This document shows positions 11,544 to 64,000 of a stretch of 64,000 nt of DNA, one piece after another (positions within the stretch are counted from its first letter, which is position 1; each line of letters opens with the position of its first letter). Under the pieces are notes generated by a model. It did no database searches and was not told the origin of the DNA. It worked only from the letters and a program-made list of their open reading frames with translations. A program made the position numbers and the translations under genes. The stretch lies in assembly GCA_963733195.1 (NCBI GenBank), contig CAVTCR010000019.1, forward strand, positions 89,553 to 153,552, in the 5' to 3' direction. The DNA is from an uncultured delta proteobacterium. Lineage in GTDB: Bacteria > Desulfobacterota > Binatia > Bin18.

Positions 11544-12711
11544 CTATTTGCCTTTCACTGCGGCAACGATCTTCTGCGCAGCATCGGCTAAATCGTTAGC
11601 TGGGGTAATGTTGAGACCGGACTCAGCAAGAATCTTTTTGCCTTGCTCAACATTGGTTCCTTCCAATCTCACAACCAGTGGAACTGACAGTTTGACTTGT
11701 TTAGCCGCCTCAACCACGCCCGTGGCTACGACATCACAGCGCATGATGCCACCAAAGATGTTGACTAACACACCTTTGACATTTTTATCTGAGAGAATGA
11801 TCTTGAACGCTTCAGTCACTTTCTCTGTCGTGGCACCGCCACCGACATCAAGGAAGTTGGCTGGCTCAGCGCCGTAAAACTTGATGATGTCCATCGTCGC
11901 CATTGCCAACCCAGCGCCGTTGACCATGCAGCCAATGCTGCCATCAAGCGCAATGTAACTGAGGTCAAACTTTGAGGCCTCAACTTCTTTGGGATTCTCC
12001 TCGGTAATGTCGCGCATCTCACGCAGATCCGCATGACGAAAGAGCGCGTTATCATCGAAACCCATTTTGGCATCGAGAGCGACGAGGTCACCAGACTTCG
12101 TCAATACGAGCGGGTTAATTTCGACCATTGAGGCATCGCTATCCATGAACGCCCGGTAGAGTGCCCGCATGAATCCAACCGCTTTATTCACTGAATCTTT
12201 CGGCAGTCCGAGACCAAAGGCGAGCTTGCGGCCCTGGAAATCATTAAAGCCAATCGCTGGATCAATCGTGGCACGCAGGATCTTTTCAGGCGCGCGCTCA
12301 GCAACTTCTTCGATCTCGACCCCACCTTCAGAACTGGCCATAACGGTGACGCGGGACGTCACACGATCAATCACCATACCAAGGTAGTATTCCTTGGCGA
12401 TGTCACAGCCTTGTTCGACAAAGACCTTCAGTACTTCTTTGCCTTCAGGCCCAGTCTGATGGGTCACCAGTTTTTTTCCTAAGAATTGCCGCGGCATGCT
12501 GCTTCGCCTCTTGGGGAGTCTTGGCGAGTTTGACCCCACCGGCTTTGCCACGCCCACCGGCATGAATCTGCGCTTTGACGACGCATAACCCACCACCTAA
12601 CGCATTGGCCGCAGCTTCGGCTTCGTCCGCGGTCGTAGCGACCTTACCGTTCAGTACCGCAACACCATACTTCCTAAGAATGTCTTTGGCTTGGTATTCA
12701 TGGATATTCAT
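11544..12711 (-). CDS. sucC: Succinyl-CoA ligase beta subunit (one frameshift near 12490)
   Basis: MNIHEYQAK...[17 protein letters not shown] joined to ...[30 protein letters not shown]. Confidence 0.95.
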
Positions 12712-12784
12712 AGTAGTCCTCGCCGAGGGACAGCGGCAGATGCGGAGGGACTCAGCAGCGCCGGGTCCCTATCTCGCGCCTAAC

Positions 12785-20329: not shown

Positions 20330-21382
20330 ATGTCAACACAAGAGCCGGTTACAACGCCCACCACTCCGCCACCCTTTGTGGCGCTCTTTCAGATGGTGAC
20401 CGGGTACTACATCTCCCAGGCGCTTTACGTCGCCGCCAAACTCGGGATTGCCGATGTGCTCAAGGATGGTCCGCGCCATTACACTACGCTTGCCCAACTC
20501 ACGGGCACCCATGCCCCCTCGCTCTATCGCCTCTTACGGCTCCTCGCCAGTGCTGGAGTATGCGACGAACAGGAGAAGGGGCACTTTGGGTTGACCGCCA
20601 TTGGAGCCTATCTCCAAACGGATATCCCTGGTTCTTTGCACGCCATCGCCTTACAGTTCGCTGGGCCATGGCACTCGCGCGGGTGGAGCGACCTTTTATA
20701 CAGCGTACAGACGGGCGAGATTGCCTTTGACCATCTCTTTGGGATGGGTGTCTTTCCATATCTCACGCAGCATCCAGACGAGGCGGCGATCTTCGACGCA
20801 GCCATGACCGCCTTCTCTACGCAGGCTGCTGCGGCAGTGGTCACGGCTTATGATTTCTCAGCGTTGGGGACAATTGTCGATATAGGCGGTGGGCACGGAG
20901 CATTGCTGAGAGCCATTCTGCAAGCAACTCCAACTGCGCGTGGTCTCCTCTTTGACTTGCCCCACGTTGTCGAAGGGGCCAAGAGGCAGATAGAGGCCGC
21001 TGGCCTAGCGGAGCGGTGTGCGGTGGTGGGGGGAGACTTCTTCACAGCGGTACCGAGTGGCGGCGATGCCTATATTCTCTCGGAAGTCATCCATGACTGG
21101 GATGATGAGCGAAGCCTGACGATTCTCAAAAATTGCCACCGCGCCATGAATAAAAAGGGAAGACTTTTGCTCGTCGAGTTAGTCTTGCCGGCACGGATAG
21201 ATCAGTCTCCGACAAGCCAGATCATCGTCGGCAGCGACGTCAACATGCTCGTACTCGCCGGTGGGCGCGAACGGACAGAGGCTGAGTTTAGGGTGCTCTT
21301 CGAGGCGGCAGGGTTTAAGCTGACCAAGATCATTCCCACCCAAGGTTTGGCGAGCGTAGTTGAAGGGATACGCCTAGAGTAA
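20330..21382 (+). CDS. SAM-dependent O-methyltransferase (Methyltransf_2 with dimerisation domain), attC-flanked cassette
   Basis: VDIGGGHG, GGDFF, VIHDWDDE, GGRERTEAEF. Confidence 0.92.
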   Translation: MSTQEPVTTPTTPPPFVALFQMVTGYYISQALYVAAKLGIADVLKDGPRHYTTLAQLTGTHAPSLYRLLRLLASAGVCDEQEKGHFGLTAIGAYLQTDIPGSLHAIALQFAGPWHSRGWSDLLYSVQTGEIAFDHLFGMGVFPYLTQHPDEAAIFDAAMTAFSTQAAAAVVTAYDFSALGTIVDIGGGHGALLRAILQATPTARGLLFDLPHVVEGAKRQIEAAGLAERCAVVGGDFFTAVPSGGDAYILSEVIHDWDDERSLTILKNCHRAMNKKGRLLLVELVLPARIDQSPTSQIIVGSDVNMLVLAGGRERTEAEFRVLFEAAGFKLTKIIPTQGLASVVEGIRLE

Positions 21383-21430
21383 CGCCGGGCACGAGGAAGC
21401 GCAGTATGGATGACCAACGAAGGCGTTAAC

Positions 21431-21527
21431 GGCTAACATGCCGCGCCACCGCATCGCCGCCCGGTTGCGGATCTGCTGAAGCTGAAAGGCCGCGTTTGGG
21501 CGGCTCGCGGTGCGCGGGGCGTTAGAC
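21431..21527 (+). mobile_element. Integron attC site
   Basis: GGCTAAC ... GTTAGAC; stem CGCGC-[C]-ACCGC..GCCGCCC..GCGG pairs with CCGC..GGGCGGC..GCGGT-GCGCG, leaving an extrahelical base. Confidence 0.85.
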
Positions 21528-21554
21528 TCCAAAACAACAAACAGAGAGATGACC

Positions 21555-22450
21555 ATGCAATTTGGAATCTATGTCCCAAACTTTGGAGAGAACGGAGACC
21601 CCCACAACCTTTTGACCCTTGCCGAGTGAGGCCGAAGCTGCTGGCTGAGATGGCTTCTTTCTCTGAGAGCACCTCCTCCACGATTCTCGGGAGGCTGATA
21701 TCCTGGTCGGGGACGCTCTGGAATCGCTGGCCGCCATCGTGGCCCGAACGGAGCGAATGCGACTGGGTCCGATGATTACTCCCGTTGAATGTCGATCAGC
21801 CCCTGGAAGCTGACGCTTGAATTGGTGTAGCTTCATCAACCGCCTGTCACTCGGAGGCGCGATCCTGGGACTTGGCCTGAGGGCACCGGCAGATGCGGAA
21901 TTTCAATGCTTTGGCGAAGATCCTGCGGATCGAGTGCGAGCGCGCAAGCTTGACGAAGCGCTAGGTATTCTCGACGGGCTGGAACGTGGGGAGAGCTTCC
22001 ACCGAGCAAGGGGAGTATTTCCACATTGAAGGAAGTGACATTCAACGCACCCGACCGGTGAAGACGCCACACGCTCGGATCTGGGTAGCTGGCTTTTGGC
22101 CCAATAAGGCCCCACTGCGCCGGGCCGCGCGCTGGGAACGGAAGTTTTCCTTTGAAGATGCCCCCTGTACCCATAATAGGCCTCTCGCCAAGCAACATTA
22201 CGTGGTCGGCCTTGTGGCTTACCCCGGACAGAGCTGCGGGAGAGCATCACCTTCGTGAGGCAGCACCGCACCACGGATGGGCACTTTGACATCGTTGCCA
22301 GTGGCGCGACGTCAGTCAACGAGTGAAGCAAGTCAGCAAGAGATCGTCACTGCCTTCCGGGAGGCTGGGCGACCTGTGGCTGGAGTGGCTTGAGAACAGC
22401 GAGAGGACTTTTGTGTTGAATATGAAGGACAGCTGGCGGCGGACAGAGCG
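21555..22450 (+). pseudogene. LLM-class (luciferase-like) oxidoreductase pseudogene
   Basis: MQFGIYVPNFG..EAEAAG*DGFFL*EH.., RTERMRLGPMITP, PRIWVAGFWPNKAPLRRAARW; in-frame TGA at 21646 and 21664 plus indels; 3' end approximate. Confidence 0.75.
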
Positions 22451-22469
22451 CAGAGCGGGCGTGAGTAGC

Positions 22470-22491
22470 GTAGCCCGGATGAAATCCGGGA
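22470..22491. repeat. GTAG-type REP
   Basis: GTAGCCCGGATGAAATCCGGGA; homolog at 23863. Confidence 0.65.
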
Positions 22492-22519
22492 TTCCTAGCG
22501 CAATTTGCATCTGCATGAG

Positions 22520-23085
22520 TCCAGGCCTCACAAGAAATGGGTGGATGACGTCCTCTGCATTCTTGTCGGGTGGAAAGACAGGGTAAAAGACCTGCTCTAT
22601 GCGCCCGTTGCAGAGGATGAGCGTGAGCCGTTTGATTAAGATCATCGACCCTACGGCAAATGTAGGCAGTCGTAAGGCATTGGCAAAGACCAGCCGCTCG
22701 TCGCTCAAGAGTTCGAACGGGAGATGCAGTCGCTTGACGGCTTCACGTTGATAGTCCGTATCCTGGGTGCTCAGCCAAAGACCTGTGCCCCGAAGGTTTG
22801 CAGTTCACGGTAGTGGTCCCGAAAGGCGCAGGATTGTGGGGTGCAGCCTCTGGCTCCCGGGATCTCGTTCCAGCCGGTGGGCGGCTCTCGGTCCGGGTGG
22901 CCCGTACGCGGATAACAGTAGACGACGGTTCTGCCAGTGAGACTCGATAGATCGACGAGGCGCCCTGCCGTCGAGGGCAGCGGGACAGAAGGAAGGGACA
23001 TGCCTGGGAGATGGTTGCACGTCCCGTCATCGCGCGGAACCGGAAGATCCTTGGGCAGCTCGTACAGATTATCCGATCTCGGCAT
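22520..23085 (-). CDS. Peroxiredoxin (BCP/redoxin-like); frameshift near 22775; native C-terminus uncertain
   Basis: LPKDLPVPRDDG, YCYPRTG, PGARGCTPQSCAFRD, then LSTQDTDYQ..LLSD..KRLTL..VFYPVFPPD. Confidence 0.8.
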
Positions 23086-23110
23086 ACGTTCCTCCTTTCC
23101 ATGCTCCGTT

Positions 23111-23499
23111 TCACAGAGCAATTTCAACTGAGACTGTAGTGTAAGAAACCCGTGGCGATTTACGACCACGCTTCTGTGGTCCGGCCTTTTCTTCTCCAAG
23201 ATCGATGAGTCCTAGACGGGCAAGAAGGTGAACATCTGTATTGACATTCTTGAAGTCTCTTCCCGCCAGCGTAGCTAACGCCTTGATCGACTCGGGCCGT
23301 TCCTTGTGGATAAGGCGCAGCAATTCGAGCCGACGGTCAGTCAGCACCTGACGAAGTTCCTCCAACGAGGTGAAATATAACGTGTCCTGCGACCAGTGCG
23401 GATCTCGTTCCTCGTGATCCAATCGTCGCGCGATTTTCTTTTCTTCTTCCCACACCTCCTTCCACGGTTTCACAACAACATGGATTTTACGGGGCTTCA
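23111..23499 (-). CDS. HTH protein (HVO_A0114/MarR-like), probable antitoxin
   Basis: LYFTSLEELRQVLTDRRLELL...PESIKALATLAGRDFKNVNTDVHLL; overlaps the upstream small gene. Confidence 0.7.
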
Positions 23500-23792
23500 T
23501 TACTTTCTTCCTCTTCAAGCAGACGTGTGCAGTTTTGTTCAAAATCGTCCAGGAGCTTCTCTATACTCTGAAACATATAGGGTTCTTCGACTCCACGCAG
23601 ATGACGATGAGAACCTTTCGGCCAATGATTGTCATACCCTATCAACTCCTCGCCATTAGCTGGATCGACTAAGAAACAGCGAAACCGATAACCCTCAGGA
23701 GTTTTAGAACTTACAGGCACTTGGTAAATCGCCACCTCCATGATGTAGCCTTTGCGGTAGACTTTGAACGCCCGGAGCGGTTGACGTTTCAT
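23487..23792 (-). CDS. DUF6516/TumE-like putative toxin
   Basis: IYQVP..PEGYRFR..LIGYDNHWPKGSHRH..EEPYMFQSIEKLLDDF. Confidence 0.7.
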   Translation of the reverse strand: MKRQPLRAFKVYRKGYIMEVAIYQVPVSSKTPEGYRFRCFLVDPANGEELIGYDNHWPKGSHRHLRGVEEPYMFQSIEKLLDDFEQNCTRLLEEEESNEAP

Positions 23793-23815
23793 CCTATGGT
23801 TTTCTACGCCATAGG
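23793..23815. promoter_or_regulatory. Inverted repeat, probable autoregulatory operator of the TA pair
   Basis: CCTATGG-N9-CCATAGG directly abutting the start codon. Confidence 0.5.
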
Positions 23816-23862
23816 TAGAAAGCTAGCAATAGCTTTGCGGGTCGAGGCGATGAAGAAGCGAG

Positions 23863-23923
23863 GTAGCCCGGCTGCAATCCGGGACTTCTGCTCCTGGATT
23901 TTGCTGCGCGCCATCCAGGCTAC
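23863..23923. repeat. GTAG-type REP doublet
   Basis: GTAGCCCGGCTGCAATCCGGGA ... CCTGGATT..ATCCAGGCTAC. Confidence 0.7.
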
Positions 23924-24009
23924 GTCGCTGTGGTAGACTGGACACGAGTGGCGCGCCATCAGCGCTGTACCATGCGGCCACCGACGACGATGTTCTTCAT
24001 CAAGGATCG

Positions 24010-25062
24010 CTACAGATCCTTCACCGCGGGAATCACTTTCTCTGCGAAGTTCCGTAGATACTCTGCGGACTTCTCCCAGCTCATACCCGCTCGCTTAGCC
24101 ATCAAGTGCAGCTCGTCGGGCGCTCCGTTGGCGAAGACTTCACGAAGCTCACCTATTGCTTGTTCAGGCGTGACGAAGAGCCGTTGCCAGTTGGGCAGGT
24201 CTTCCGGCTTCTCGGGAATCGTATCCATCAGCAGTGCAGTATACGGGTGGACGCCCTGGCGCTCGTAGTGGAAGCTGGCAAACGCTCCCTCGCGATGCTC
24301 TGCCCATGCCTTCTCCGGATCGTCGGTGACGAAACAACTCCCGAAGGTATTGATCTTGGCAGACTTGGGATTGCGGCCGTTTCTCTCACACGCCGCTCGC
24401 CAGCCTTGAAGCCATCGCTGCCATAGATCACCTCCGGTGAGGCTCGTGAAGAAGCCGCCCCATGCTCCAACGTCAAGGCCGAGCCGTGCCACGCGATTCA
24501 TCGCCTTCGGGGTGAATGCCGCGACAACGAAGGTCGGCGGGTGCGGTTTCTGCAGCGGCTTGGGATTGAGCCAGACGCCTTCGAGATCCCAGTGTTTCCC
24601 GTGGAAATCAAACGGCCGGTCTTCGGTCCAACAGCGCAGCAGGATATCCAACCCTTCTTCGAGGAGACTTGGCCGATGCTTTGGGTTCAACCCGAGCATC
24701 CGGAACTCCATGTCGAACGTTTGCCCAACTTGGCCGATGCCGATGTCGAGGCGGCCATTGGAGAGAATGTCGAGCACAGCGAGTTGCTCTGCCAGGAGCA
24801 CCGGGTGATAGAACGGCAGCTGAATGATGTTCGAACAGATGCGGACCCGGTGGGTGTGCATCGCTGCGGCGGTCATCGTTACCGCGATGCCCGGGTTGTA
24901 GCCTTCAGGGTCGCCGTGGTGCTCGCAGAGGCTGATCGAATCGAAGCCTAACCGTTCCATCTCCTGCATGTGGTCGAAAGCGCTGGAGTATAATGCCGGC
25001 CAAGGCTGGAACCACTCGCTCTTGGGAGGATTGCGAAAATCGTACAAGACGCCAAATTTCAT
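24010..25062 (-). CDS. LLM-class flavin-dependent oxidoreductase
   Basis: MKFGVLYDFRNP, CEHH, HPVLLAEQLAVLDILSNGRL, PKPLQKPHPP. Confidence 0.9.
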   Translation of the reverse strand: MKFGVLYDFRNPPKSEWFQPWPALYSSAFDHMQEMERLGFDSISLCEHHGDPEGYNPGIAVTMTAAAMHTHRVRICSNIIQLPFYHPVLLAEQLAVLDILSNGRLDIGIGQVGQTFDMEFRMLGLNPKHRPSLLEEGLDILLRCWTEDRPFDFHGKHWDLEGVWLNPKPLQKPHPPTFVVAAFTPKAMNRVARLGLDVGAWGGFFTSLTGGDLWQRWLQGWRAACERNGRNPKSAKINTFGSCFVTDDPEKAWAEHREGAFASFHYERQGVHPYTALLMDTIPEKPEDLPNWQRLFVTPEQAIGELREVFANGAPDELHLMAKRAGMSWEKSAEYLRNFAEKVIPAVKDL

Positions 25063-46160: not shown

Positions 46161-46256
46161 TGTCTGAAAAAGGCAAACCTCTCGAAAGAGTGAGACACAA
46201 AGCTACTGGCCTAAACCCGAGCAATATTCCAGATACGGTCGCAGAGTTACCAGGCG
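46161..46256 (+). ncRNA. c-di-GMP-I (GEMM-I) riboswitch
   Basis: GGCAAACC-TCTC-GAAA-GAGT-GAGACACAAAGC-TACTGGCCTAAAC...GCAGAGTTACC; P1 TGTCTG/CAGGCG; closely follows the Vc2 layout; 55 nt before an ATG. Confidence 0.85.
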
Positions 46257-46310: not shown

Positions 46311-47647
46311 ATGTTTCCTGCGCTGACACCACCTCGTCATCTCTTCCTTTCTACCCTCATTATTTTCGGCGTGTTATTTTCTTCGCGAATTTCCTCGGCC
46401 GCACCGCAAGTAACTCTCACGTGGAGAGATAATTCGATCAATGAAGATGGGTTTGTCATCGAGCGAAGACCCAGTACGGGTGGAACGTATACTCCAGTCG
46501 CTCAAGTTGGGCAGAATGTCACATCCGTATATTGATAATACCGTGGTTGCTGGGAGTGGGTATTGCTACCGCGTACAATCATTTAATAGTGACGGAACAT
46601 CGCCATACTCGAATGAGGCCTGTCGTACTGTGGCAACCACGGATATAGATACGCTGGTATCTATATATATATCTATAGTTGGACAGGGAAACATAACCAG
46701 TAATCCTACGGGAATTAGTTGCACACCAACATGCGAGAAAAGCTTCCCACGCGGTGCGACGGTCGGCCTTACCGCTACTCCTGTGACGGGATGGCAGTTC
46801 CAGGGGTGGGGAGGCAATTGTGCGGGGAAAGCGACAACGTGTTCTCTCACCATCGATCAAGTGAAGAATGTTACTGCGAGTTTTATCAAACCTAATGTGG
46901 GAGGGGGGGGAGGATCAACAACCGTTCTAACGATTGGAACGTTTCAGAGTGGTGCATGGTGGATCGACAATGGGAACTGGATAAAGGACGGTTGTACTGT
47001 GGACACGTGTGTGTCGTTCGGAGCCTCTGGAGACCTGCCAGTTGTAGGCTATTGGACAAAAGGTGGGAAAAAACAAATAGGGGTATTCCGTAAAGGTACT
47101 TGGTATTTGGATAGTAATGGCAACGGCCGTCTTGATGGCTGTACAGGAGGGGACACCTGCTTCTCCTTTGGCTCAGCCAATCAGAAAGCGGTCGTGGGTG
47201 ACTTAAACGGTGATGGGCAAGCTGAAGTCGGGGTGTTTAGTGATGGAGAACTGGTATTTTGATACCGGAAATCGTCGAGAGGATGGATGTACAATTGATA
47301 CATGCATTTCAGGGTTTGGCCTTACTGGCGACCAACCCGTGGTGGGAGACTGGAATGGGGACGGACGGTCCGACATTGGGGTGTTTCGCAATGGGAAGTT
47401 GGTATCTCGATTATAACGGGAATCGTAAGTTGGATGAATGTGGAATTGATAAGTGTCTAAGTTTCGGGAGACGGGGTGACTGATGCAGTCGTGGGAGACT
47501 GGAACGGGGATAGAAAAATCCAAATCGGGGTGCTCCGTCGAGGTGAATGGCATCTAGACAATGGCGACGGAGTCTGGAGCTTCGTGTGCCGTCGATAAGT
47601 GTGTGAAAGGTCTTGGGTCAAAGGACGATATCCCGGTTTCCAGGTGA
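46311..47647 (+). CDS. Secreted protein: FN3 + InlB-B-like repeat + FG-GAP-like Cys-containing repeats (multiple frameshifts)
   Basis: Signal peptide, LTWRDNSINEDGFVIER..YCYRV (FN3), GNITSNPTGISC..WQFQGWGGNC, repeats of IGVFR.G.WYLD.NG...DGC..D.C..FG...PVVGDWNGDG. Confidence 0.75.
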
Positions 47648-53206: not shown

Positions 53207-56200
53207 ATGGTGGACGTGGGGGATTGGAAAAGATTGTCTGTTCTTGCCTGGAACTATTTGACGAAATCGTTCTTGCGCTTCCACCTGCTCTTCTTGCTGC
53301 TCAGCCTGTTACTTGTACCCGTCTCCGCACCTGCCCACGCCGCCATTACCGCCCTGTTCGAGAGTCCGCTCTCCGGGCCGGTGGCGGGGGTGCAAGTCGT
53401 GCGGGGCTGGGCGTTTGTGACCGAGCCGGGCGACACGATTGCGCGGGTGGAGTTGGTGGTGGATGGCGTGCCGGCGATGACGATCCCCTGTTGTGGGGAG
53501 CGCGCCGATGTGGCCACCGCCTATCCGCAGTATCCCGCCGCCGTCACCCTCCACAGCGGCTGGGGGCTAACCGTAAACTGGAGTTTGCTGCCTCCGGGTC
53601 TCCATACGGTGCAGGTGGAGATCACCACCGCGCAGCGGCAACAGTGGCGGTCCGAGGTGCGGGAGGTGGAGGTCGTGACGGTGGGGGGCTTTGAGTTTCT
53701 GGACCTACTGAGCCTCGCCGACGCCACGGCGCGTTTGGAGGGCGACGAGATTGTCCTGGACAACGTGCGGGTGCGGGATCACGCGAGCGGACAAGAACGG
53801 GAAGTCACCCTCCGCTTACGGTGGGACCCCAACGCCCAGACGCTGTCCCTGAGCGGAGCGGTCACCACCGCCTCATTGACCTCGTTGCGCTCTACGCTCC
53901 GCGGCGTCCTTACTCCTATGTGGCAGTGGCTCGCACGGGCGAGTGGTGCCCGGGAGGTCCAAGCCGCAGCGGGCATTGTCAGCGAGTGGGAGAGTCCGAG
54001 CGCGGATGCGCTGGTGAGCGGCGTGCAGGTGATGCGCGGCTGGATGTTTGCCGAAGAGGTCGGCGTGCCGATTGCCGTCGTGCGAGTGGTGTTGGATGGC
54101 CGCATCGCGACGACGCTGCCGTGTTGTTCGGCCCGGGGAGACGTGGCCGCCGCCTTTCCGGACAATCCCAATGCCTTGGAGAGTGGTGCGGCCTTGGTCG
54201 TCAACTACGGCAACCTCACTGCCGGCCCACACGCCCTCGGTCTGGAGATCGAAGCTGCCAATGGGGCGATGTTGGCGTTCACCCGTGCCATTACCGTCCT
54301 CAAGATCGGGGGGTTCGACTACCTCGATCAATTCGATCTCTCCCAGGCTACGGTTCGTCTGGAGGGAGAAGAGATCGTGCTCACGGACGTGCGTGTGCGG
54401 GAGGAGACGTCGGGCCGTGAGAAGGTGCTGACGCTGCGGTTTCGCTGGGATACGGCCCCGCAAGGGTTTGTGCTGGCGGCCAATGATCCGCCGGTCGCCA
54501 GTGACCAGCGGGTGGAGACGGAGAGCAACGACGCCGTGACAGTCACGCTGCAGGCGCGGGATGCCGATGACGATCCCCTGCGTTTTGAAGTGGTGGACGG
54601 GCCCGCACACGGGCAGCTCACCGGTGAGCCCCCGCTGGTGCGCTACACGCCCGATCCCGGGTTTGTGGGCGAGGATCGCTTCACTTTTCTGGCGCAGGAC
54701 TTCACCTCGGCCTCGAATGTCGCCACGGTGACCCTCACGGTGACGGATGCGTCGACACCCACCCCCACCAATGACCCTCCGCAAGTGGATCTTGATCCCA
54801 CCAACCTCTCGGGGCAGCAGCCGAACTTCACCACGACCTTCACGGAAGACAGCGGATTGCAAGCGATTGTCAGTCCGCTGATGACGGTGAGTGACCCGGA
54901 CAGCGCGACCCTGGCGTCGGCGACCGCAACCCTGACGAACGTGCTCGATACGGGACAGGAAGTCCTGGCCGTCGATCCGGCCACGGTGACGCCCAATACG
55001 CCCATTGTCGCCACCTACGACGCCACAAACGGGGAGCTCCGTCTCACCGGCTCAGCTCCCCTGAGTCAATACCAGGCGGCGCTGCGCACGTTGACCTACA
55101 CCAACGCTTCCCAGAACCCTAATCCCACCGACCGCCTCATCCGGGTCGTCGCCAACGACGGCGCGGCGACCAGCACACCGGTGACCAGCACCGTGAGCAT
55201 CCGGACGGTCAATGACCAACCGACCTTCACGGCCACGAACCCCCCGGCAGTAGGTGAGAACGCGGGGCCGCAGACCCTCACCGGCTGGGCGACGTTTAAT
55301 CCCGGCGCGCCTGAGGAAACTGGGCAAACCGTGCTCGCCTACACCGTCAGCGCCGTGAGCAACCCGGGGCTCTTTACCACGTTGCCGGCGGTGGCGACGG
55401 ATGGGACGCTGACCTACACGCCCGCCGCCAACACCGTCGGGACGTCGACGTTCACCGTCACCGTGCAAGATGATGGCGGCACGGCCAATGGCGGGCAAGA
55501 CACCTCGGCGGCGCAAACGTTTACCATCACGGTCACTGTGGTGGATGATCCACCGGTGGCGGTGAATGACGCGGCGACGGTGGCGGAAGATGATCCAGCC
55601 ACGACGGTCACCGTGCTGGCCAATGATACTGATGTGGATGGTGGGCCGATCAGCATTGCGTTCCGTCACCCAACCGGCCAATGGCACGGTGGTCAACCAA
55701 TGGCGCGGATCTGACCTACACACCTAACCCTGACTACTGCAACACGCCACCGGGGACGACGTTAGACACCTTTACCTACACGCTCACGCCGGGCGGGAGT
55801 ACAGCCACCGTCAGTGTCACGGTGACCTGTGGCAATGATGCGCCGGTGGTGGATTTGGACGGCACGGCCGATGATCCAGGAGGTGACGTTGACTTTGCTG
55901 TGACGTTTACCGAAGGTACCCCGGCGGTGATTGTCGATGCAGCCAACTTGACCGTCACCGATGTCGACAGCCCGAATTTAGACTCAGCCACCGTGACGAT
56001 TACCAATCTGGTAGATGTGGGAGTCGAGACGCTGACGGCGACGGCGACGGGGAGCATCACGGTCAACTATGTTGCGCCGACGTTGACGTTGAGTGGGAGC
56101 GACACACTGGCCAATTACCAGCAAGTGTTGCGCACAGTGACGTATAACAACACGTCGCAGAATCCCAATACCACGGCTCGGACTATCACCTTTGTGGGGA

Positions 56201-59200
56201 ATGATGGAACTGTCGATAGTGCGCTGGCGACGAGCACGGTGACGATCCAAGCGATCAACAGTGCCCCGAGTTTCACCAAGGGGCCGGATCAGACGGTGAA
56301 TGAAGATGCTGGCGCGCAGACGGTCAATGGGTGGGCGACGGCGATTAGTGATGGAGATGGTGGACACGCAGACGCTGACCTTCAATGTGACGGGCAACAC
56401 CAATGCCGCGCTCTTCAGTGCTGGGCCAGCCATCAGTCCAGCGGGAGTGCTGACCTACACGCCGGCAGCGGATGCCAACGGGACGGCGACGATTACCATG
56501 ACGCTCTCAGACGACGGGGGCACGGCGCAATGGCGGAGTCGACACCAGTGCACCGCAGACGTTCACCATCACGGTGAATGCGATCAATGATGCGCCGAGT
56601 TTCACGGCCGGGCCGAACCAGACCGTCCTGGAAGACAGCGGACCGCAGACGGTCAATCCGTGGGCGACGGGGATCAGTGCCGGGACCTGCGGATGAAGCC
56701 AGCCAGACGCTGACGTTTAACATTACCGGCAACACCAATGCCGGCCCTATTCAGTGCCGGCGCCGGCGATCTCTCCCACCGGGGTCCTGACCTACACGCC
56801 GGCGGCCAATGTCAGTGGCAGTGCCACGATTACCATGACGCTCTCAGGACAATGGGGGGACGGCCAATGGCGGATGTCAACACCAGCGGACCACAGACGT
56901 TTACCATCACGGTCACGGTGGTGGATGATCCGCCGGTGGCGGTGGATGATGCGGTCGACGGTGGCGGAGGATGCGTCCGCCACGACGGTCACCGTGCTGG
57001 CCAATGATACCGATGGGGATGGCGGGCCGATCAGCATTGCGTTGGTCACCCAACCGGCCAACGGCGCGGTGGTCAACAATGGCACGGATGTGAGTTACAC
57101 GCCTAACGCCGACTACTGCAACACGCCACCGGGGACGACGTTAGACACCTTTACCTACACACTCACGCCGGGCGGGAGTACAGCCACCGTCAGTGTCACG
57201 GTGACCTGTGGCAACGATGCGCCGGTGGTGGATTTGGACGGCACGGCCGATGATCCAGGAGGTGACGTTGACTTCGCTGTGACGTTTACCGAAGGCACGC
57301 CGGTGGTGATCGTTGATGCCACGAATTTAACCGTGAGCGATATCGACAACCCGAACCTCGTCTCAGCTACAGTGACGATTACCAATCTGCAAGATGCCGG
57401 TATCGAGACACTGGCGGCGACGACCGCGGGGACGAGCATAACGGCAGTCTACACGGCCGCAACTGGAGTGCTGAGTCTCACCGGCACCGATACGCTGGCC
57501 AACTACCAGCAAGTGTTACGCACGGTGATGTATAACAACACCTCGCAGAATCCCAATACGACCGCACGGCTGATCACCTTCGTAGTGAATGACGGGACTG
57601 ATACGAGTGCAACGGCGACGACGACCCTGAGTATTACCTCTGTCAATAATCCACCAACCGTCACTCCAGTCACTTTTACCCTTGACGAAAACAGCACTAA
57701 CGGCACGGTGGTGGGGACGGTGACCGCGACCGATCCCGACCTGCCGGCACAGACGTTGAGTTATGCGATCACGGCAGGGAACCCGGGGAATGCGTTTGCC
57801 ATTAACTCCAGCACTGGGCAGATTACGGTGGCGACCTCTACGGCGCTCGATTTCGAGACTACGCCGACGTTTAACCTTACCGTCCAAGTGACCGACGACG
57901 GCACGCCTGCCCAATCAGGCAGTGCCACCATCACGGTCAACTTGACCAATGCGAATGATCCGCCGGTGGTGATGGCGGCCACCTTCGCTATTCCAGAGAA
58001 CAGCGCCAACGGGACAACGGTCGGGACGCCGGTGACCTTCACCGACACAGATGTAGGCCAGACCCACACTTTTGCCATCAGTGCGGGGAACATCGGTGGG
58101 GCGTTCGCGATCAACGCCAGCGGTCAGATCACGGTCGCCAACAACACGGCGCTCGATTTCGAGACCACGCCGGCATTCAACCTTACCGTACAAGTGACTG
58201 ACAACGGCACCCCTGCCCAATCAGGCAGTGCCACGATCACCGTCAACCTCACTGACGTGAACGAGGCCCCGACGGCCACGGCTCAGAGTATAACGACCGA
58301 CGAGGACATAGCTATAGCGATTACCCTCGCCGGCACGGACCCAGAGAATCAGACCCTAACCTTCGTGGTGGCTACTAGCCCGACCAAGGGGGGGCTGAGC
58401 GGAACACCACCGAATCTGACTTATACGCCAACCGCCAACCTTAACGGCCCAGACAGACTTCACCTTTACGGTCAGTGACGGGACCACCACCTCGGCCCCG
58501 GCGACCGTCAGTATTACTATTAATCCGGTGGATGACCCGCCGGTGGCGGCCGTGGACACGGCCACGGTCACCGAGGATGCGGGGGCCACTGCGATCAGCG
58601 TCTTAGCCAATGACCTGGACATTGACGGCGGACCGATCGGCATCTTTTCGGTCACCCAGCCGGCCAACGGTGCGGTCGTCAATAACGGCACGAATGTCAC
58701 CTACCAGCCTAATGCCGATTACTGCAACAGTTTGTCGGGCACCCCGGATACGTTCAGCTACACCCTCAGCCCGGGTGGGAGTACGGCTGCAGTCAGTGTG
58801 ACCGTCACCTGTGTCAACGACCCGCCGAGCGTGACGCCACCGGCAGCCTATGCCGCCCACGCCCATATCGCCATCAACATCCCCGATGGCGCCACCGATC
58901 TCTTCGAGGGTTCAATCATCACCGATGTCGATGGCCCGGGGGCGGCACCCTTCAGCATCACAGCGGCAGGGCCTTTCGCCTCGACCAACGGCGGCAGTGT
59001 GACGATCGCGGGCAACGGCAAGCTCACCTACAACCCGCCGGTCGGATTCACCGGTGCCAACGACACCTTCCTCTACCAGATCTGCGACAGTGGGGTGCCG
59101 GGTAGTGCGTGTACTGATGCCACAGCCACGGTCACCGTGAGCGGGCCGTTGGTGTGGTTTGTCAATAATGCACTGGGCGCGGCGGGAGATGGCCGACTGT

Positions 59201-61030
59201 CTTCACCGTTCAACACGCTGGCGGCGGCAGACAGTGCGGCCAATGCCACCGGCGACCGCATCTTCGTGTTCACCGGTGCGAGCACCTACACCCTCGGCTT
59301 TGGACTCTTGACCAATCAACGCCTGATTGGGCAGGGCGTGGTCGATACCAACTTCGACACCGCGCTCGGCATCACCCCACCCGCGACCAGCGTGGTCCGG
59401 CCTGGGATCAACGGCACACGCCCGATCATCAACGGCACGATCGCCCTGGCCACCGGCGGCACCACGCGGGGGTTCAATGTCAACAACACTACCACCAACG
59501 GTGTCACGGGCAGTGGGGCGACGGGGCTCACGGTCAATCAGGTGAGCGTGACCACCACCACGGGCGTGGCGGTGAACCTGGCGAACTCCGGGGGCACAGT
59601 GAGTTTCACCTCGGTCTCAGCCAACGGCGCCGCCAACGGCATCGTGCTGCAGAACACCACCGGCGGCTTTATCGTCACGGGCGACGGCAACACGACCCAA
59701 GGTGGCAACAACTCCGGCGGTACGATTCAGAGCACCACCGGCGACGGCATCTCACTGACGAATACCACCAACGTGTCCCTCAACAACATGAATTTCCAGA
59801 ACACAGCCGGACACGGCATCAACGGCACCGGGGTAAACACTTTCAGCTTCACCAACGGCAAAATCAACGGCGCGGGCACGGCATCCGACCACAGCTGCGT
59901 CTCGTTCGACGACCTGAACGCCGCCAACGTCAGCGGGACGTTCACTTTCACCAACAACCAATGCACCCAGACCGAGGCCAACGGCGTCGACATCGAGAAC
60001 TACGGGGCGACACTTTCCGACGTCAACATCTCGAACAACCAGTTCACCGACACGGGCGACGTGGCGACGCCCGGTTCCGCCGTCCTGCTGATCGGTAACT
60101 CGACGGCTTCGACCAGCGGCGTCTTAACAAAGGCGACGCTCGAACAACAATACAATCACGGACTTCCGTGCCGGCGCCGGCTTCGTGCTTCAGGCCAACA
60201 CCGACTCGGCTGCGGGCACGCCCTGTCACCTACGGCACTGCCGGCGACGCCACAACGTCGTCACGTGACCGGCAACCTGATGAACGGCGGCAACGGCGGC
60301 ATCGGCTACCAGCCCGATCGGTTCGTCACCGGCGGGATCAACCGGAGCGGACAGGGCAACTACAACGTCTCCAACAACGGTACGGTGGCCAACCCGATCC
60401 AGAACATCGACTGTATCGCGATCGAACTCCAGGCCGACGGCCCGGTCCAATGTACGACAACTGTCAACAACAATTTCATCAACGCGAACAATGCCGTCGG
60501 CCTGCTCTGGCATCGGCATCGTGGGTCACGGACGACTCCTGGCAGACAGTCGGCGCCGGCACGCTAACGACCACGATCATTGACGGCAACAACGTCAGCC
60601 GGACAGATGGGCCCGGCATCTTCGCTATCGTCCGCGACCTCGGGCTGCACGATGACAGCAAGGGTGACCAACAACACTGTCGCCGCGCCGATCGCCGACG
60701 AACGCCGCCCGCGCCGGCATTCAGGTCGACTCCGGCTCCGCCGCCGGCGATATTACCCTCTGTCTGGACATCAGCGGCAACACCACTGCCGGCAGCACGA
60801 ACACCGGCACCAGCACCACGTCGCCTGGCATCAACCTCCGCAAGCAAGGGACAGCCGTGGGTGTTAATGACTTCGGCATCGAAGGGTTACCGAGCTCGCC
60901 CGCTGGCACGCCAACGGTCGAAAATTACGTCAATTCACAAAACACCAGCACCTCCGGCACCTTTGGAGTGGGAGGTACCGCTTTACTCTCGGGCACGAGT
61001 GGATTTGTGAGTTGCGGATCGGCACCGTAA
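53207..61030 (+). CDS. Giant secreted adhesin-like protein (~2600 aa if indels are corrected): paired Ig-like domains, tandem-95/Big_9 and cadherin repeats, C-terminal beta-helix-like region
   Basis: Signal peptide ..VSAPAHA-A; NDPPVA/DxDGD repeats; cadherin LDFETTP motifs; Asn/Thr/Gly-rich C-terminus ending [11 protein letters not shown]; ORFs 53207, 55681, 56754 and 58528 join through frameshifts. Confidence 0.8.
55517..57295 (+). repeat. Near-identical ~400-bp intragenic direct repeats (55517-55916 and 56897-57295)
   Basis: Shared runs such as gactactgcaacacgccaccggggacgacgttagacacctttacctacac and gatttggacggcacggccgatgatccaggaggtgacgttgact. Confidence 0.9.
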
Positions 61031-61084
61031 CCCGCACGTGGACGAAGCCAAAATGGGTCAACTAATGAGCCGTGAGGAGGAATT

Positions 61085-61597
61085 ATGGCGGAACCATTCT
61101 TGTCAGAAATCAGGATCATGAGTTTCGACTTCGCGCCAAAGGGATGGGCGTTATGCAACGGACAGCTTCTACCTATTAACCAGAATCAAGCATTATTTTC
61201 CCTGCTGGGAACGACCTTCGGTGGTGATGGCCGGGTGAACTTCGCGCTGCCTAACCTGCAAGGTCGCACTCCGGTCCACGTCGGCAGCGGCCACACCTTA
61301 GGTGAGCGCGGCGGCGAACAAGCCCACACACTGAGTATCACCGAACTGCCTGAGCACGTACACGCGGTGAACGCAACAACAATCCAAGCCCAAGCCGCTA
61401 CTAATATCCCAAATTCGTCCCTTGTGCTTGCCCAGTCCAATTTCAGTTTTCTATATGGTTCCCCCTCTACTCTTGAGGCAATGGCGCCGAATGCCATCTC
61501 TCCAGTAGGTGGGTCCCAGGCACACCTCAACATGCAACCGTTTCTGACCCTGGCATTCTGCATCGCGTTGCAGGGGATTTTTCCATCGCCAAACTAA
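61085..61597 (+). CDS. Phage tail-collar domain protein (microcystin-dependent protein/MdpB-like), paralog 1
   Basis: FLSEIRIMSFDFAPKGWALCNGQLL..QNQALFSLLGTTFGGDG..FALPNLQGR; HVH; HLNMQPFL..CIALQGIFP. Confidence 0.92.
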   Translation: MAEPFLSEIRIMSFDFAPKGWALCNGQLLPINQNQALFSLLGTTFGGDGRVNFALPNLQGRTPVHVGSGHTLGERGGEQAHTLSITELPEHVHAVNATTIQAQAATNIPNSSLVLAQSNFSFLYGSPSTLEAMAPNAISPVGGSQAHLNMQPFLTLAFCIALQGIFPSPN

Positions 61598-61672
61598 AAT
61601 CAGTCTGAGGGTCTGAGAGTCTGGGAGTCCGGGAGACTGACGGACTAAGAGGCTCAGAGAAAGAGGGCAAGT

Positions 61673-62184
61673 ATGGCACAAACCGTATGTTGGTGAAATT
61701 CGCATGTTCGCGGGCAACTTCGCGCCGGCGGGGTGGATGTTCTGTGAAGGGTCAATTGCTCCCGATCAGCGAGAACGAGACGCTTTTCCAATTGATTGGC
61801 ACAACGTACGGCGGCGACGGTGAGAGTACGTTCGCGCTGCCCGACCTGCGCGGAAGAATTCCGGTCCATCAAGGGAACGGCCTTATCCTAGCAGAGACCG
61901 GTGGGGCAGAGGAGATCACGCTCACAGTGACCCAAATCCCTGCCCACTCGCATGCTCTGCTCGGAACGGCCAGTATCGCGACGAGCAACTCACCACAGAA
62001 CGCCATGCTAGCGAGCAGTACGGGTGCCACTATTTTTCCATACGGCACTGATCAGCCAACGACGCTTCTCCATCCACTTTCGCTTTCGCCAGTTGGCGGC
62101 AGTCAACCGCACACGAATTTTCAACCGTACTTGTGTGTCAACTTCATTATTTCGTTGTTTGGGATTTTTCCGTCGCCAACGTGA
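61673..62184 (+). CDS. Phage tail-collar domain protein, paralog 2 (two indels near the 5' end)
   Basis: MAQ-PYVGEIRMFAGNFAPAGWMFCE-GQLLPISENETLFQLIGTTYGGDG; HSH; HTNFQPYL. Confidence 0.88.
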
Positions 62185-62361
62185 TGAAGAAGTAGCCAGT
62201 AGTCAGCATTCAGTAGCCAGTAGTGGAAAGAAGGCTATAGACTATAGGCTTAAGGTTGTACGAAGAAGAGAAAACTCTTTCGCTGCTTCATATTCGTTTC
62301 TCTGCAGTGAGGCGGCATCATTCCCGCGAAAGTGGGAATCCAGGAATAAGGAGCAAACACT

Positions 62362-62878
62362 ATGGCAGACCCGTTCGTTGCTGAAATCAGAATTTTCCCA
62401 TTTAACTTTGCCCCGAAGGGTTGGGCGTGGTGCGATGGCCAGTTGATGCCATTGTCGCAGAACACGGCGTTGTTTTCGTTGCTGGGGACAACTTATGGGG
62501 GAAATGGCAAATCCAATTTCGCATTGCCTGACCTCCAAGGCCGCGCGCCGATGCACCCTGGCCAGGGACCAGGCTTAAGCCTTCACGATTTGGGCGAGAC
62601 AGGAGGCAGCGAGACGGTGACGCTACTGGAGTCCGAGATACCTGTCCATACCCATGCCTTTATCGCTTCTGAATCCGATGGGATAGAAAGGACTGCTAAC
62701 GCCCAACTGCTAGCTGGAGGCGTTGGCATCAGCGCTTACCAGACGCCAGGTCGTAACCCAACTCAACTCTAATACCCTCTCTCCAGCCGGTGGCGACCAA
62801 ACGCATAACAAATTGCAACCCTATCTGACTTTCTACTTCTGCATCGCGCTACAGGGGGTCTTTCCGCCGCGAACGTAA
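62362..62878 (+). CDS. Phage tail-collar domain protein, paralog 3 (indel near 62770)
   Basis: MADPFVAEIRIFPFNFAPKGWAWCDGQL; HTH; shifted C-terminus HNKLQPYLTFYFCIALQGVFPPRT. Confidence 0.88.
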
Positions 62879-62900
62879 ATCAGTCTTTCTGTCTGAGGGT

Positions 62901-63098
62901 CTATAGGAATCCTTTTTGATTTGTGGTGGAAGCAGAAGAGCTGAAGTTGGTTCACCCTTCGACTTCGCTCTACTACGCTCAGGGCGAACGGTCTACGCTA
63001 TGCGCACGGTAAGCCCGTTCGTGCTGAGCGTCGCCCGGAGGGCGGAGTCGAAGCATGAACGGCACTCGATATCCACAAATGATTTAGGTTCACTATAG
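62901..63098. mobile_element. MITE-like element with CTATAG termini and an internal REP-like palindrome
   Basis: CTATAGGAATCCTTTTTGATTTGTGG ... CCACAAATGATTTAGGTTCACTATAG; internal TTCGACTTCGC..CGCTCAGGGCGAACGG / CCGTTCGTGCTGAGCG..GGAGTCGAA. Confidence 0.75.
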
Positions 63099-63247
63099 GA
63101 GTTGAGGAGTCAAAAAAGGGATTTAGGATTTGGGCTCTAGGATTTAGGAGGGGAAGAGCCGGGAGAAGTTTCAGGGATTAGCTATCTTCCTACTGGCATG
63201 GGGATTGGTGTAGGGAATACAATCCCAGGTCAATGAGAGGAGCGAGT

Positions 63248-63472
63248 ATGCAAACCGCCACAGAGATGACTCAACCCCAGGTTCACCCCACCCCACCTCG
63301 TGAGGCTGTTCAACGCGTTATTTTGCCTGGTGTCAGTTGGTCCACCTATGAGGCGTTATTGGCTGACATGCAGGACAGTCACGCTGTGCATTTTGCCTAC
63401 GACCAGGGGATGTTGGAAATTATGGCACCATCGTATGAACACGAGTCGGTGAAAGGCCATCTTGCTCTCTTA
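63248..63472 (+). pseudogene. Uma2-family endonuclease, N-terminal part, interrupted by an IS
   Basis: QRVILPGVSWSTYEALL...AYDQGMLEIMAPSYEHE; homology stops near 63475. Confidence 0.8.
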
Positions 63473-64000
63473 GTGACTCACCTTACGCGACGGGAGCGAA
63501 AAAGGTATAGCCTCGCGCATATGAAACAACAACCGATAGCCAATTTGTATTCCGATTACTTGCTGGCCTCGTTTGGGCCGACGACAGCCACGGGGCTGAG
63601 CGAACTGCTGGAAGGGGAAGTCAGCCATGATCAAGTGACCCGGTACTTGGCGGGGACGAAGAAAACCGCGACCGATCTGTGGCAGACCGTCAAGTCCTTT
63701 GTTCGGGAGGTACAATTCCGGAAGGGGTGTTGATCCTGGACGACTCGATCGAGGAGAAGCCGTATACCGACGAGAACGAGAGTCTGTTGGCACTACGATC
63801 ACTCCAAAGACCGGATGCTCAAAGGGATCAATTTCCTGACGGCGCTGTATAGCAGCCCAGGGGTGCGTGTCCCGGTGGGCTTCCACTTGGTGGCCAGACC
63901 AAGACGTATATCGACCCCAAGACACAGAAGGAGAAGCGGCGCAGTCCCGTGCCAAGAATACCGTGTGTCAGGAACTGATCAAACAGGCGAGCAATACGTG
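63473..64000 (+). mobile_element. IS701-family insertion sequence; transposase from 63521, frameshifted, runs off the window
   Basis: LYSDYLLASFGPTTATGLS..VSHDQVTRYL..DLW, then GVLILDDSIEEKPYTDENE..WHYDHSK..KGINFLTALY. Confidence 0.85.

Follow-up and report, generated by a model that had tools for sequence, protein, structure and literature searches.

A giant surface-protein gene followed by three tail-collar paralogs: a proposed copy of a widespread non-viral cassette on a frameshifted bacterial contig

The window analyzed here is a 64-kb stretch of contig CAVTCR010000019.1 from an uncultured delta proteobacterium, and all positions given below refer to it. It ends where the contig ends and contains, at 53207-62878 on the + strand, a giant surface-protein gene followed by three genes for small proteins with the collar domain of phage tails (PF07484), here called collars A, B, and C. 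This arrangement had been proposed from the letters of the DNA alone (the original prediction), and we find that the gene order is real and as first described, but that the genes are not intact as that account implied: breaks in the giant gene, in collar B, and in collar C had been missed. On balance we favor the view that the locus is one copy of a widespread non-viral cassette, that the A, B, and C proteins form a knob acting in concert with the giant surface protein, and that the frameshifts are artifacts. The term cassette denotes a grouping defined in this analysis.

The collar paralogs and their relatives

The last stop codon of the giant gene (61028-61030) and the ATG of collar A (61085) are separated by 54 nt on the same strand, as had been described. 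All three collars score above the curated PF07484 cut-off of 24 bits, and a whole-genome search returned only these three genes of the family. Collar A (61085-61597, +; 95.0 bits, E 2.6e-27), which carries the motif HVH, is the sole uninterrupted 170-residue frame of the three and is 76-77% identical to its counterpart in G024, a genome from another genus of the same family. Collar B (61673-62184, +; HSH) contains two +1 frameshifts, near 61682 and 61750-61755, and its frameshifted sequence gives a partial match (63.0 bits, E 2.4e-17). Collar C (62362-62878, +; HTH; 94.5 bits, E 3.6e-27), which has a clade-specific GPGLSL insert, contains one +1 frameshift near 62752; its first frame stops at 62772 and the conserved C-terminus, extending to 62878, lies in another frame. 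The description of three tail-collar paralogs of ~170 residues therefore stands as regards the domain, with only the first paralog intact, and the three HxH motifs and the C-terminal H-x-x-x-QP...G-x-FP pattern are present in all three as predicted. The collar domain starts at residue 1-8 of 165-171, leaving no N-terminal shaft, and Pfam finds the Collar domain alone, with no toxin domain in any of the three. Judged from the sequences, A, B, and C are without signal peptides, in agreement with the original prediction, which had set this against the signal-like N-terminus of the large protein. The spacer between collars B and C measures 177 nt, compared with the usual 10-15 nt in other loci, and a similar short sequence, AATCAGTCT...GAGGGTCT, is seen by eye just past the stops of collars A and C (61598-61640 and 62879-62915).

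The G024 genome contains an intact syntenic locus consisting of a 1290-residue Big_9/cadherin/beta-helix protein, A, B, C, a DUF6916 protein (145 residues, with a twin-arginine N-terminus), and a GNAT acetyltransferase, flanked by metabolic and signaling genes. The window collars pair one-to-one with A, B, and C of G024, the GPGLSL insert of C included, and frameshift-aware alignments of collars B and C score 609 and 618. It is by this pairing that window B and C are assigned, since the clade tree described below was built from 62 other clean triplets. With X placed at the breaks, positions that are invariant within each clade are violated in 0 of 46 cases in A, 0 of 34 in B, and 1 of 56 in C (N to K), counts that fall within the range of other clade members.

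Collar A has at least 597 relatives when one genome per species is considered, and the counts that follow rest on the best 80 of these loci (55-79% identity), which are the closest relatives of A and are neither a random nor a phylogenetically independent sample. By their record titles, which we assigned to phyla ourselves, these 80 loci come from Chloroflexota, Acidobacteriota, Verrucomicrobiota, Pseudomonadota, Bacteroidota, Actinomycetota, Bacillota, and Eremiobacterota, and nearly all of them contain three consecutive collar genes of ~170 residues. Carriers that can be cultured include Chiayiivirga flava DSM 24163, Flavobacterium phragmitis, Mesorhizobium huakuii NBRC 15243, Paenibacillus eucommiae DSM 26048, and Nocardioides currus. 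In a tree of the 62 clean triplets (186 proteins) the proteins separate into three ancient clades, and a triplet is nearly always composed of one member of each: this is the case in 59 of the 62, with gene order ABC in 53, BAC in 4, and BCA in 2, while the remaining 3 have a third gene that does not group with clade C. Three distinct paralogs of this kind fit the single heterotrimer that had been suggested. Identity within a clade is 55-76% across phyla, with a mean column identity of 62-73%, and it is unevenly distributed along the protein. Column conservation is 0.90-0.92 in the collar, 0.76-0.88 in the HxH segment, 0.41-0.43 in residues 96-135, and 0.81-0.85 in the C-terminal strand, giving each paralog the same architecture of a conserved collar, one HxH, ~40 hypervariable residues, and a conserved C-terminal strand. 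The HxH histidines are invariant within each clade (H91/H93 in A and B, H95/H97 in C).

Some loci carry two or three A/B/C triplets in tandem (L114, L113, L020, L052, and L075). One of them, a 5.4-kb IMG/VR contig (L114:1-5456), contains nine collar open reading frames (ORFs), and in L020 each of two triplets lies behind its own giant gene. We found no prior description of the cellular cassette in the literature searched, a search that did not cover supplementary files and left subscription journals mostly outside; COG4675 and DUF6916 go unmentioned among the literature matches listed.

The giant gene and the genes beside the triplet

The giant coding region of the window (53207-61030, +) begins with an ATG at 53207 and, judged from the sequence alone, encodes a hydrophobic, signal-like N-terminus. 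Its pieces match Big_9, Cadherin_4, Cadherin_5, and Cadherin in Pfam, and its N-terminal part contains two repeats of ~190 residues that belong to no Pfam family. The ~7.8-kb Ig/cadherin/beta-helix gene of the original prediction is thus borne out as a coding region with these domains and a signal-like start, but it is not one ORF. The gene is split over several frames (53207-55714, 55681-56577, 56754-58478, 58528-60567, and a tail to 61030), such that a stop-free reading of 53207-61030 takes 7 frame changes or more, and the homology-guided count is ~17, with 8 at 55.66-58.46 kb and up to 9 at 60.0-60.7 kb. It also contains a 1.38-kb internal duplication (~55.5-56.9 versus 56.9-58.3 kb) whose copies are 78-92% identical. 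With the intact 1290-residue protein of G024, one piece shares 54% identity over 575 residues. The beta-helix module that the window gene has in common with giants beside other triplets lies at 59140-61027 (+), where the start is an estimate from residue ~205 of the piece at 58528-60567. A profile iterated from the G024 beta-helix matches only the ORF at 58420-60564 among the 698 ORFs of at least 500 residues in this genome.

Linkage to giant surface proteins had been predicted for the triplet, and it is borne out across the 56 loci whose flanks extend 3 kb or more on each side, the set to which the neighbor counts refer. An ORF of at least 800 residues lies on the same strand within 2.5 kb of the triplet in 49 of the 56 (25 upstream and 24 downstream), compared with 5.5% of random 1.6-kb windows in this genome and 12.4% of those in stretches of the same-genus genome G002. 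Pfam finds Big_9 in 18 of 22 giants and an Ig/cadherin-type repeat of some kind in 21, while the beta-helix profile finds its module in 47 of 57 adjacent giants and in 48 of the 56 loci. The anchors of the giants fit their lineages: a type IX secretion system (T9SS) sorting domain in a Flavobacterium, SLH in a Paenibacillus, and RTX repeats in two others. The cassette is likewise linked to GNAT, present as a cassette-type gene in 44 of the 56 loci, and to DUF6916, present in 34 and with a twin-arginine motif in 11; giant, GNAT, and DUF6916 all occur together in 25 loci and at least one of them occurs in 54. GNAT had been named as a possible co-occurring gene, which is true of the cassette elsewhere, although this genome has no cassette GNAT.

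The long forms of DUF6916 carry the RR motif in 13 of 14 cases, and the short forms have no signal. The structural model of DUF6916 is a confident six-stranded barrel (pLDDT 84), for which Foldseek returned nothing at E ≤0.001; the best fold matches (VIA Z 8.0, PilZ/YcgR-N-type barrels) lie at background level, and from other weak ones, to MreC and to several phage tail or neck proteins, we draw no inference. The cassette GNATs match RimI weakly (30-37 bits, cut-off 86) and have no signal peptide. In two Contendobacter loci (L017:12193-13395 and L071:12191-13393) a GT4-type glycosyltransferase gene lies between the triplet and a Tat-signal DUF6916, and genes for Peripla_BP_6 periplasmic-binding proteins recur in four other loci.

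Relationship to phages and to other collar proteins

PF07484 is best known from phage tail fibers, and the only sequence matches in the PDB are to phage fibers, namely 8kec (a long tail fiber; residues 31-99, E 2e-5) and 9cuy (a short tail fiber). Taken with the fact that the sequence past the insertion sequence is unreadable where the contig ends, this raises the question of whether the collars are remnants of a prophage, tailocin, or contractile injection system that extends beyond the contig, a reading that we regard as close to refuted. In agreement with the original prediction, Pfam finds no capsid, sheath, tube, or baseplate family in the 50 window ORFs scanned (PHROGs was not searched). 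There is no phage structural family among 134 small neighbors in related loci, and metabolic and signaling genes surround the intact locus of G024; the context of the cassette is thus non-prophage in the window and in related loci alike. Collar A does match 376 phage records, none of which reaches 60% identity; the best are minor tail proteins of actinophages (31-37% over ~90% of A), so that phage relatives are at most 37% identical compared with 55-79% for cellular ones from other phyla. In IMG/VR, triplets occur in 9 of 79 loci, and in each of the remaining 70 there is a lone collar-bearing protein, of a size that varies greatly among loci. From the low phage identity, the few viral triplets, and the absence of phage neighbors it follows that the collar module, whose sequence points to phage-fiber ancestry, belongs to a distinct cellular family.

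T4 gp12 and gp37 are the receptor-binding tips of phage tail fibers. Phage fiber tips are like A, B, and C in that a collar domain is followed by an HxH motif, but a phage fiber is the product of a single gene that forms a homotrimer with a long shaft and is encoded in a tail cluster, whereas A, B, and C are shaftless, are three fixed paralogs, and have no phage neighbors. A further parallel by description is the virophage DSLV2 of the Aquatic Virophage 1 lineage (J Virol 2025), for which the portion of the report drawn on here states that three consecutive PF07484 proteins co-purify as a ~55 kDa complex and that these tripartite tail proteins bind Synechococcus cells (PMC12724248). Like the cassette, DSLV2 has three consecutive same-strand genes, each encoding a PF07484 collar and a variable head, but its proteins are borne on the virion and modeled on the capsomer, whereas the cassette is found on the chromosomes of ~8 phyla beside a giant gene, GNAT, and DUF6916. 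The likeness is one of description, not of sequence comparison.

Collar proteins also occur in cellular operons of unknown function, which is what the cassette shares with RhiB and MrpB, the source of the label "microcystin-dependent protein". According to the excerpted accounts, RhiB of the non-phage Rhizobium operon rhiABC(D) carries PF07484 (PMC13133039), and MrpB of Microcystis resembles RhiB and is co-transcribed with mrpA (PMC3328848). As described in those passages, each of these operons has one recognized collar protein and is under quorum-sensing or microcystin-linked control, and the passages make no mention of an A/B/C triplet, a giant beta-helix protein, GNAT, or DUF6916. In Acaryochloris, AM1_3686-3690 (an acetyltransferase, a hypothetical protein, and three tail collars) are reported to be induced together, with some of the strongest responses to far-red low light (PMC11633204); their likeness to the cassette is by annotation only.

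Frameshifts and the state of the locus

Since only collar A can be read without interruption, the state of the locus depends on whether the frameshifts are real. As a test set we used 116 ORFs of at least 350 residues that lie in twenty stretches of G002, each 20 kb long. A search of this genome gave an ortholog at 60% identity or more for 89 of them: 68 in one piece, 17 frame-split, and 4 partial for other reasons. This gives 21 frame junctions in ~137 kb genome-wide, or 0.153 per kb, about one per 6.5 kb of coding sequence. The genes that are frame-split in this assembly include rpoB (two breaks), rpoC, tuf, dnaK, purH, and uvrD (for example at C71:135283-145110 and C19:5230), and because split genes such as rpoB, rpoC, tuf, and dnaK cannot all be dead, the assembly carries pervasive indel errors. 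The aligned paths through the broken genes of the locus contain no in-frame stop, and the three breaks that can be pinned by the giant gene's own repeat are single-base insertions. We judge it likely that the window frameshifts are assembly artifacts, and on that account the organism probably has a working locus. Read-level support is needed for any gene model or pseudogene call based on this assembly.

Several observations weigh against this view. Approximately 20 frameshifts fall within 9.7 kb, where 1.5 would be expected, ~13 times the genome-wide density, and 18 of these ~20 are +1 shifts compared with 12 of 21 genome-wide. Homopolymer runs were considered as the cause and rejected: G/C runs of at least 4 number 0.97 per kb at 60.0-61.0 kb, where the frameshifts are densest, versus 4.19 in the genome sample, so that homopolymer content leaves the local excess unexplained. 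GNAT and DUF6916 are missing from a 93%-complete assembly, with an insertion sequence in their place. Giants with neither gene do occur beside the triplet, but in only 4 of the 56 loci, and real decay of the window copy is thus possible.

The alternative is a decaying pseudogene cluster, namely a horizontally acquired island that lost its GNAT/DUF6916 end via IS701 activity and is accumulating real frameshifts. Besides the density of the breaks and the failure of homopolymers to account for it, this reading draws on the GC content of the locus (60-64% versus 53% in the remaining window), on two same-genus genomes that have no match, on the missing GNAT and DUF6916, on the IS701 element directly downstream, and on the one invariant-position change, which lies past the break in C. 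The absences come from direct searches: no cassette-type GNAT was found in the assembly, where the best GNAT scores 50 bits compared with 182-250 for members, and no DUF6916 (PF21880) was found with our own profile, while the Pfam model also finds none in this genome but likewise none in 14 control genomes, so that the Pfam result by itself is no proof that the gene is missing. Decay is nevertheless downgraded because rpoB, rpoC, tuf, and dnaK, essential genes, are broken alike in the same assembly. It also sits poorly with aligned paths free of nonsense codons and with 1 violation among 136 invariant positions. Bacterial pseudogenes show a deletion bias, the opposite of the insertion bias seen here. 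Finally, no break is farther than 8.4 kb from the contig end, and throughout this assembly the coverage by long ORFs is lower at the ends of contigs (0.41, 0.51, and 0.57 for the three terminal 2-kb bins) than in the interior (0.64). The local excess is compatible with a decay of consensus quality at contig ends, although insertion sequences at contig ends could also lower the coverage. We consider real decay of the locus doubtful on this evidence, and retain the artifactual origin of the breaks in what follows.

Downstream of collar C there are 350 nt and then, where G024 has DUF6916 and GNAT, the start of a Uma2-like gene that runs into a fragment of an IS701-family transposase (63233-64000, +; Pfam and NCBIfam), outside the cassette. 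The original prediction had mentioned an IS701, and the ORF at 63233-63733 matches the N-terminus of such a transposase at residues 104-160 (NCBIfam, E 4e-14). The match to NF049921 reaches 52.8 bits (cut-off 250) over profile positions 3-58 of 318. The fragment is broken by frameshifts and by the contig end, which lies 1.1 kb after collar C, and the Uma2 match is weak (Pfam, E 0.0049). The transposase reading frame apparently changes as well before the contig ends. Collar matches were found in 4 of 24 family genomes and in neither of two same-genus genomes. The locus looks like an accessory, horizontally moving block because it has the rare combination of giant and triplet without GNAT and DUF6916, because its distribution in the family is patchy, and because its GC content is raised. 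Synteny with the same-genus genomes was tried for locating the borders of an island and was uninformative, the DNA being 64-78% identical with short matches. A cyanobacterial source, to which the MdpB label might point, is unlikely: the same-genus relative encodes rpoC as one protein of 1362 residues with Rpb1 domains 1-5, and in cyanobacteria rpoC is split.

Hypothetical mechanism

We now put forward a hypothetical mechanism for the cassette. We propose that A, B, and C would fold as one 1:1:1 trimer in which a metal is held on the axis by the three HxH motifs, and we regard such a trimer as the simplest arrangement because the fold, trimeric in phages, is here always encoded by a set of three paralogs, one of each, in which HxH is invariant; the virophage DSLV2 offers a precedent. 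At the head, the variable loops, different in each of the three, would recognize a sugar or a cell surface, and the knob would act together with the giant surface protein, either as a tip on it or as a partner, which we suggest because of the tight pairing of the triplet with a beta-helix/Ig giant that bears export or anchoring signals. The original prediction had left the export route unexplained. Elsewhere there may be a partial answer: in those loci in which a Tat-signal DUF6916 is present (11 of 56), the signal-less knob could be exported in the folded state, piggy-back on DUF6916. Proteins without a signal are known to be exported by the Tat pathway with a signal-bearing partner, as in the small and large subunits of hydrogenase. 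The cassette would resemble such hitchhiker pairs in that a small twin-arginine protein is encoded beside signal-less, probably metal-binding oligomeric proteins, but it differs in this genome, in which the DUF6916 gene is absent. In the weakest step of the mechanism, the cassette GNAT would acetylate A, B, and C at their N-termini, as suggested by the strongly conserved start M-A-(E/Q/D)-P together with the RimI-like character of the GNAT.

Two further points count against the proposed mechanism. The Tat-signal DUF6916 is confined to those 11 loci, so the export route is not general and is inapplicable in this genome, and the trimer, its contact with the giant protein, and its export are all predicted from sequence. 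The mechanism in its most complete form, a "cellular tail fiber" in which an A:B:C knob is assembled in the cytoplasm, modified by GNAT, exported with the Tat-signal DUF6916, and docked on the giant's beta-helix, its loops choosing the polysaccharide or cell to be bound, is accordingly one that we offer as a speculation and consider unlikely as a whole.

The same absence of signal peptides could mean that A, B, and C stay in the cytoplasm and never contact the exported giant. They might then help in assembly or quality control, have a regulatory part, or serve GNAT as a substrate or partner, and the genomic linkage would reflect co-regulation only. GNAT and the short form of DUF6916 are signal-less as well, and 45 of the 56 loci are without a Tat-signal DUF6916. 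We find this improbable, since the combination of a conserved scaffold and a hypervariable head is typical of binding surfaces that face outward, the Tat signal of DUF6916 (in 13 of 14 long forms) points to the periplasm or beyond, and the virophage analog binds cell surfaces according to the part of that report cited above (PMC12724248). The variable head loops, the dedicated acetyltransferase in 44 of 56 loci, and the patchy occurrence in 4 of 24 family genomes would also suit a released, bacteriocin-like or effector-like binder aimed at other cells, with GNAT providing self-protection and the giant acting as an independent adhesin. The very tight adjacency to beta-helix giants (48 of 56 loci) speaks against such a binder, and Pfam finds no toxin domain in A, B, or C; we hold this to be very unlikely. 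We therefore retain, as the favored reading, a knob that acts together with the giant surface protein.

Other features of the window

A c-di-GMP-I riboswitch is predicted at 46162-46254 (+; 59.5 bits, E 4e-9), upstream of a 273-residue ORF (46441-47262) with a divergent InlB B-repeat domain, and short stretches resembling this riboswitch/InlB region occur at several places in two same-genus genomes. The ORF for the beta subunit of succinyl-CoA ligase (11544-12750) begins at position 71 of the ATP-grasp_2 profile, and its N-terminus may have been lost to another frameshift. The 2.6 kb at 21382-24010 contain no ORF of at least 150 residues and no Rfam or tRNA match.

Significance

The label "microcystin-dependent / phage tail collar protein" gains a concrete context from these results, that of three obligate subunits that are 55-76% identical across ~8 phyla. 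If the knob is a surface recognition head, the cassette would show that a phage module for receptor binding has been domesticated on a wide scale, to serve adhesion or recognition by the cell itself. If true, the A:B:C knob would be the second natural heterotrimeric fiber tip, after that of a virophage.

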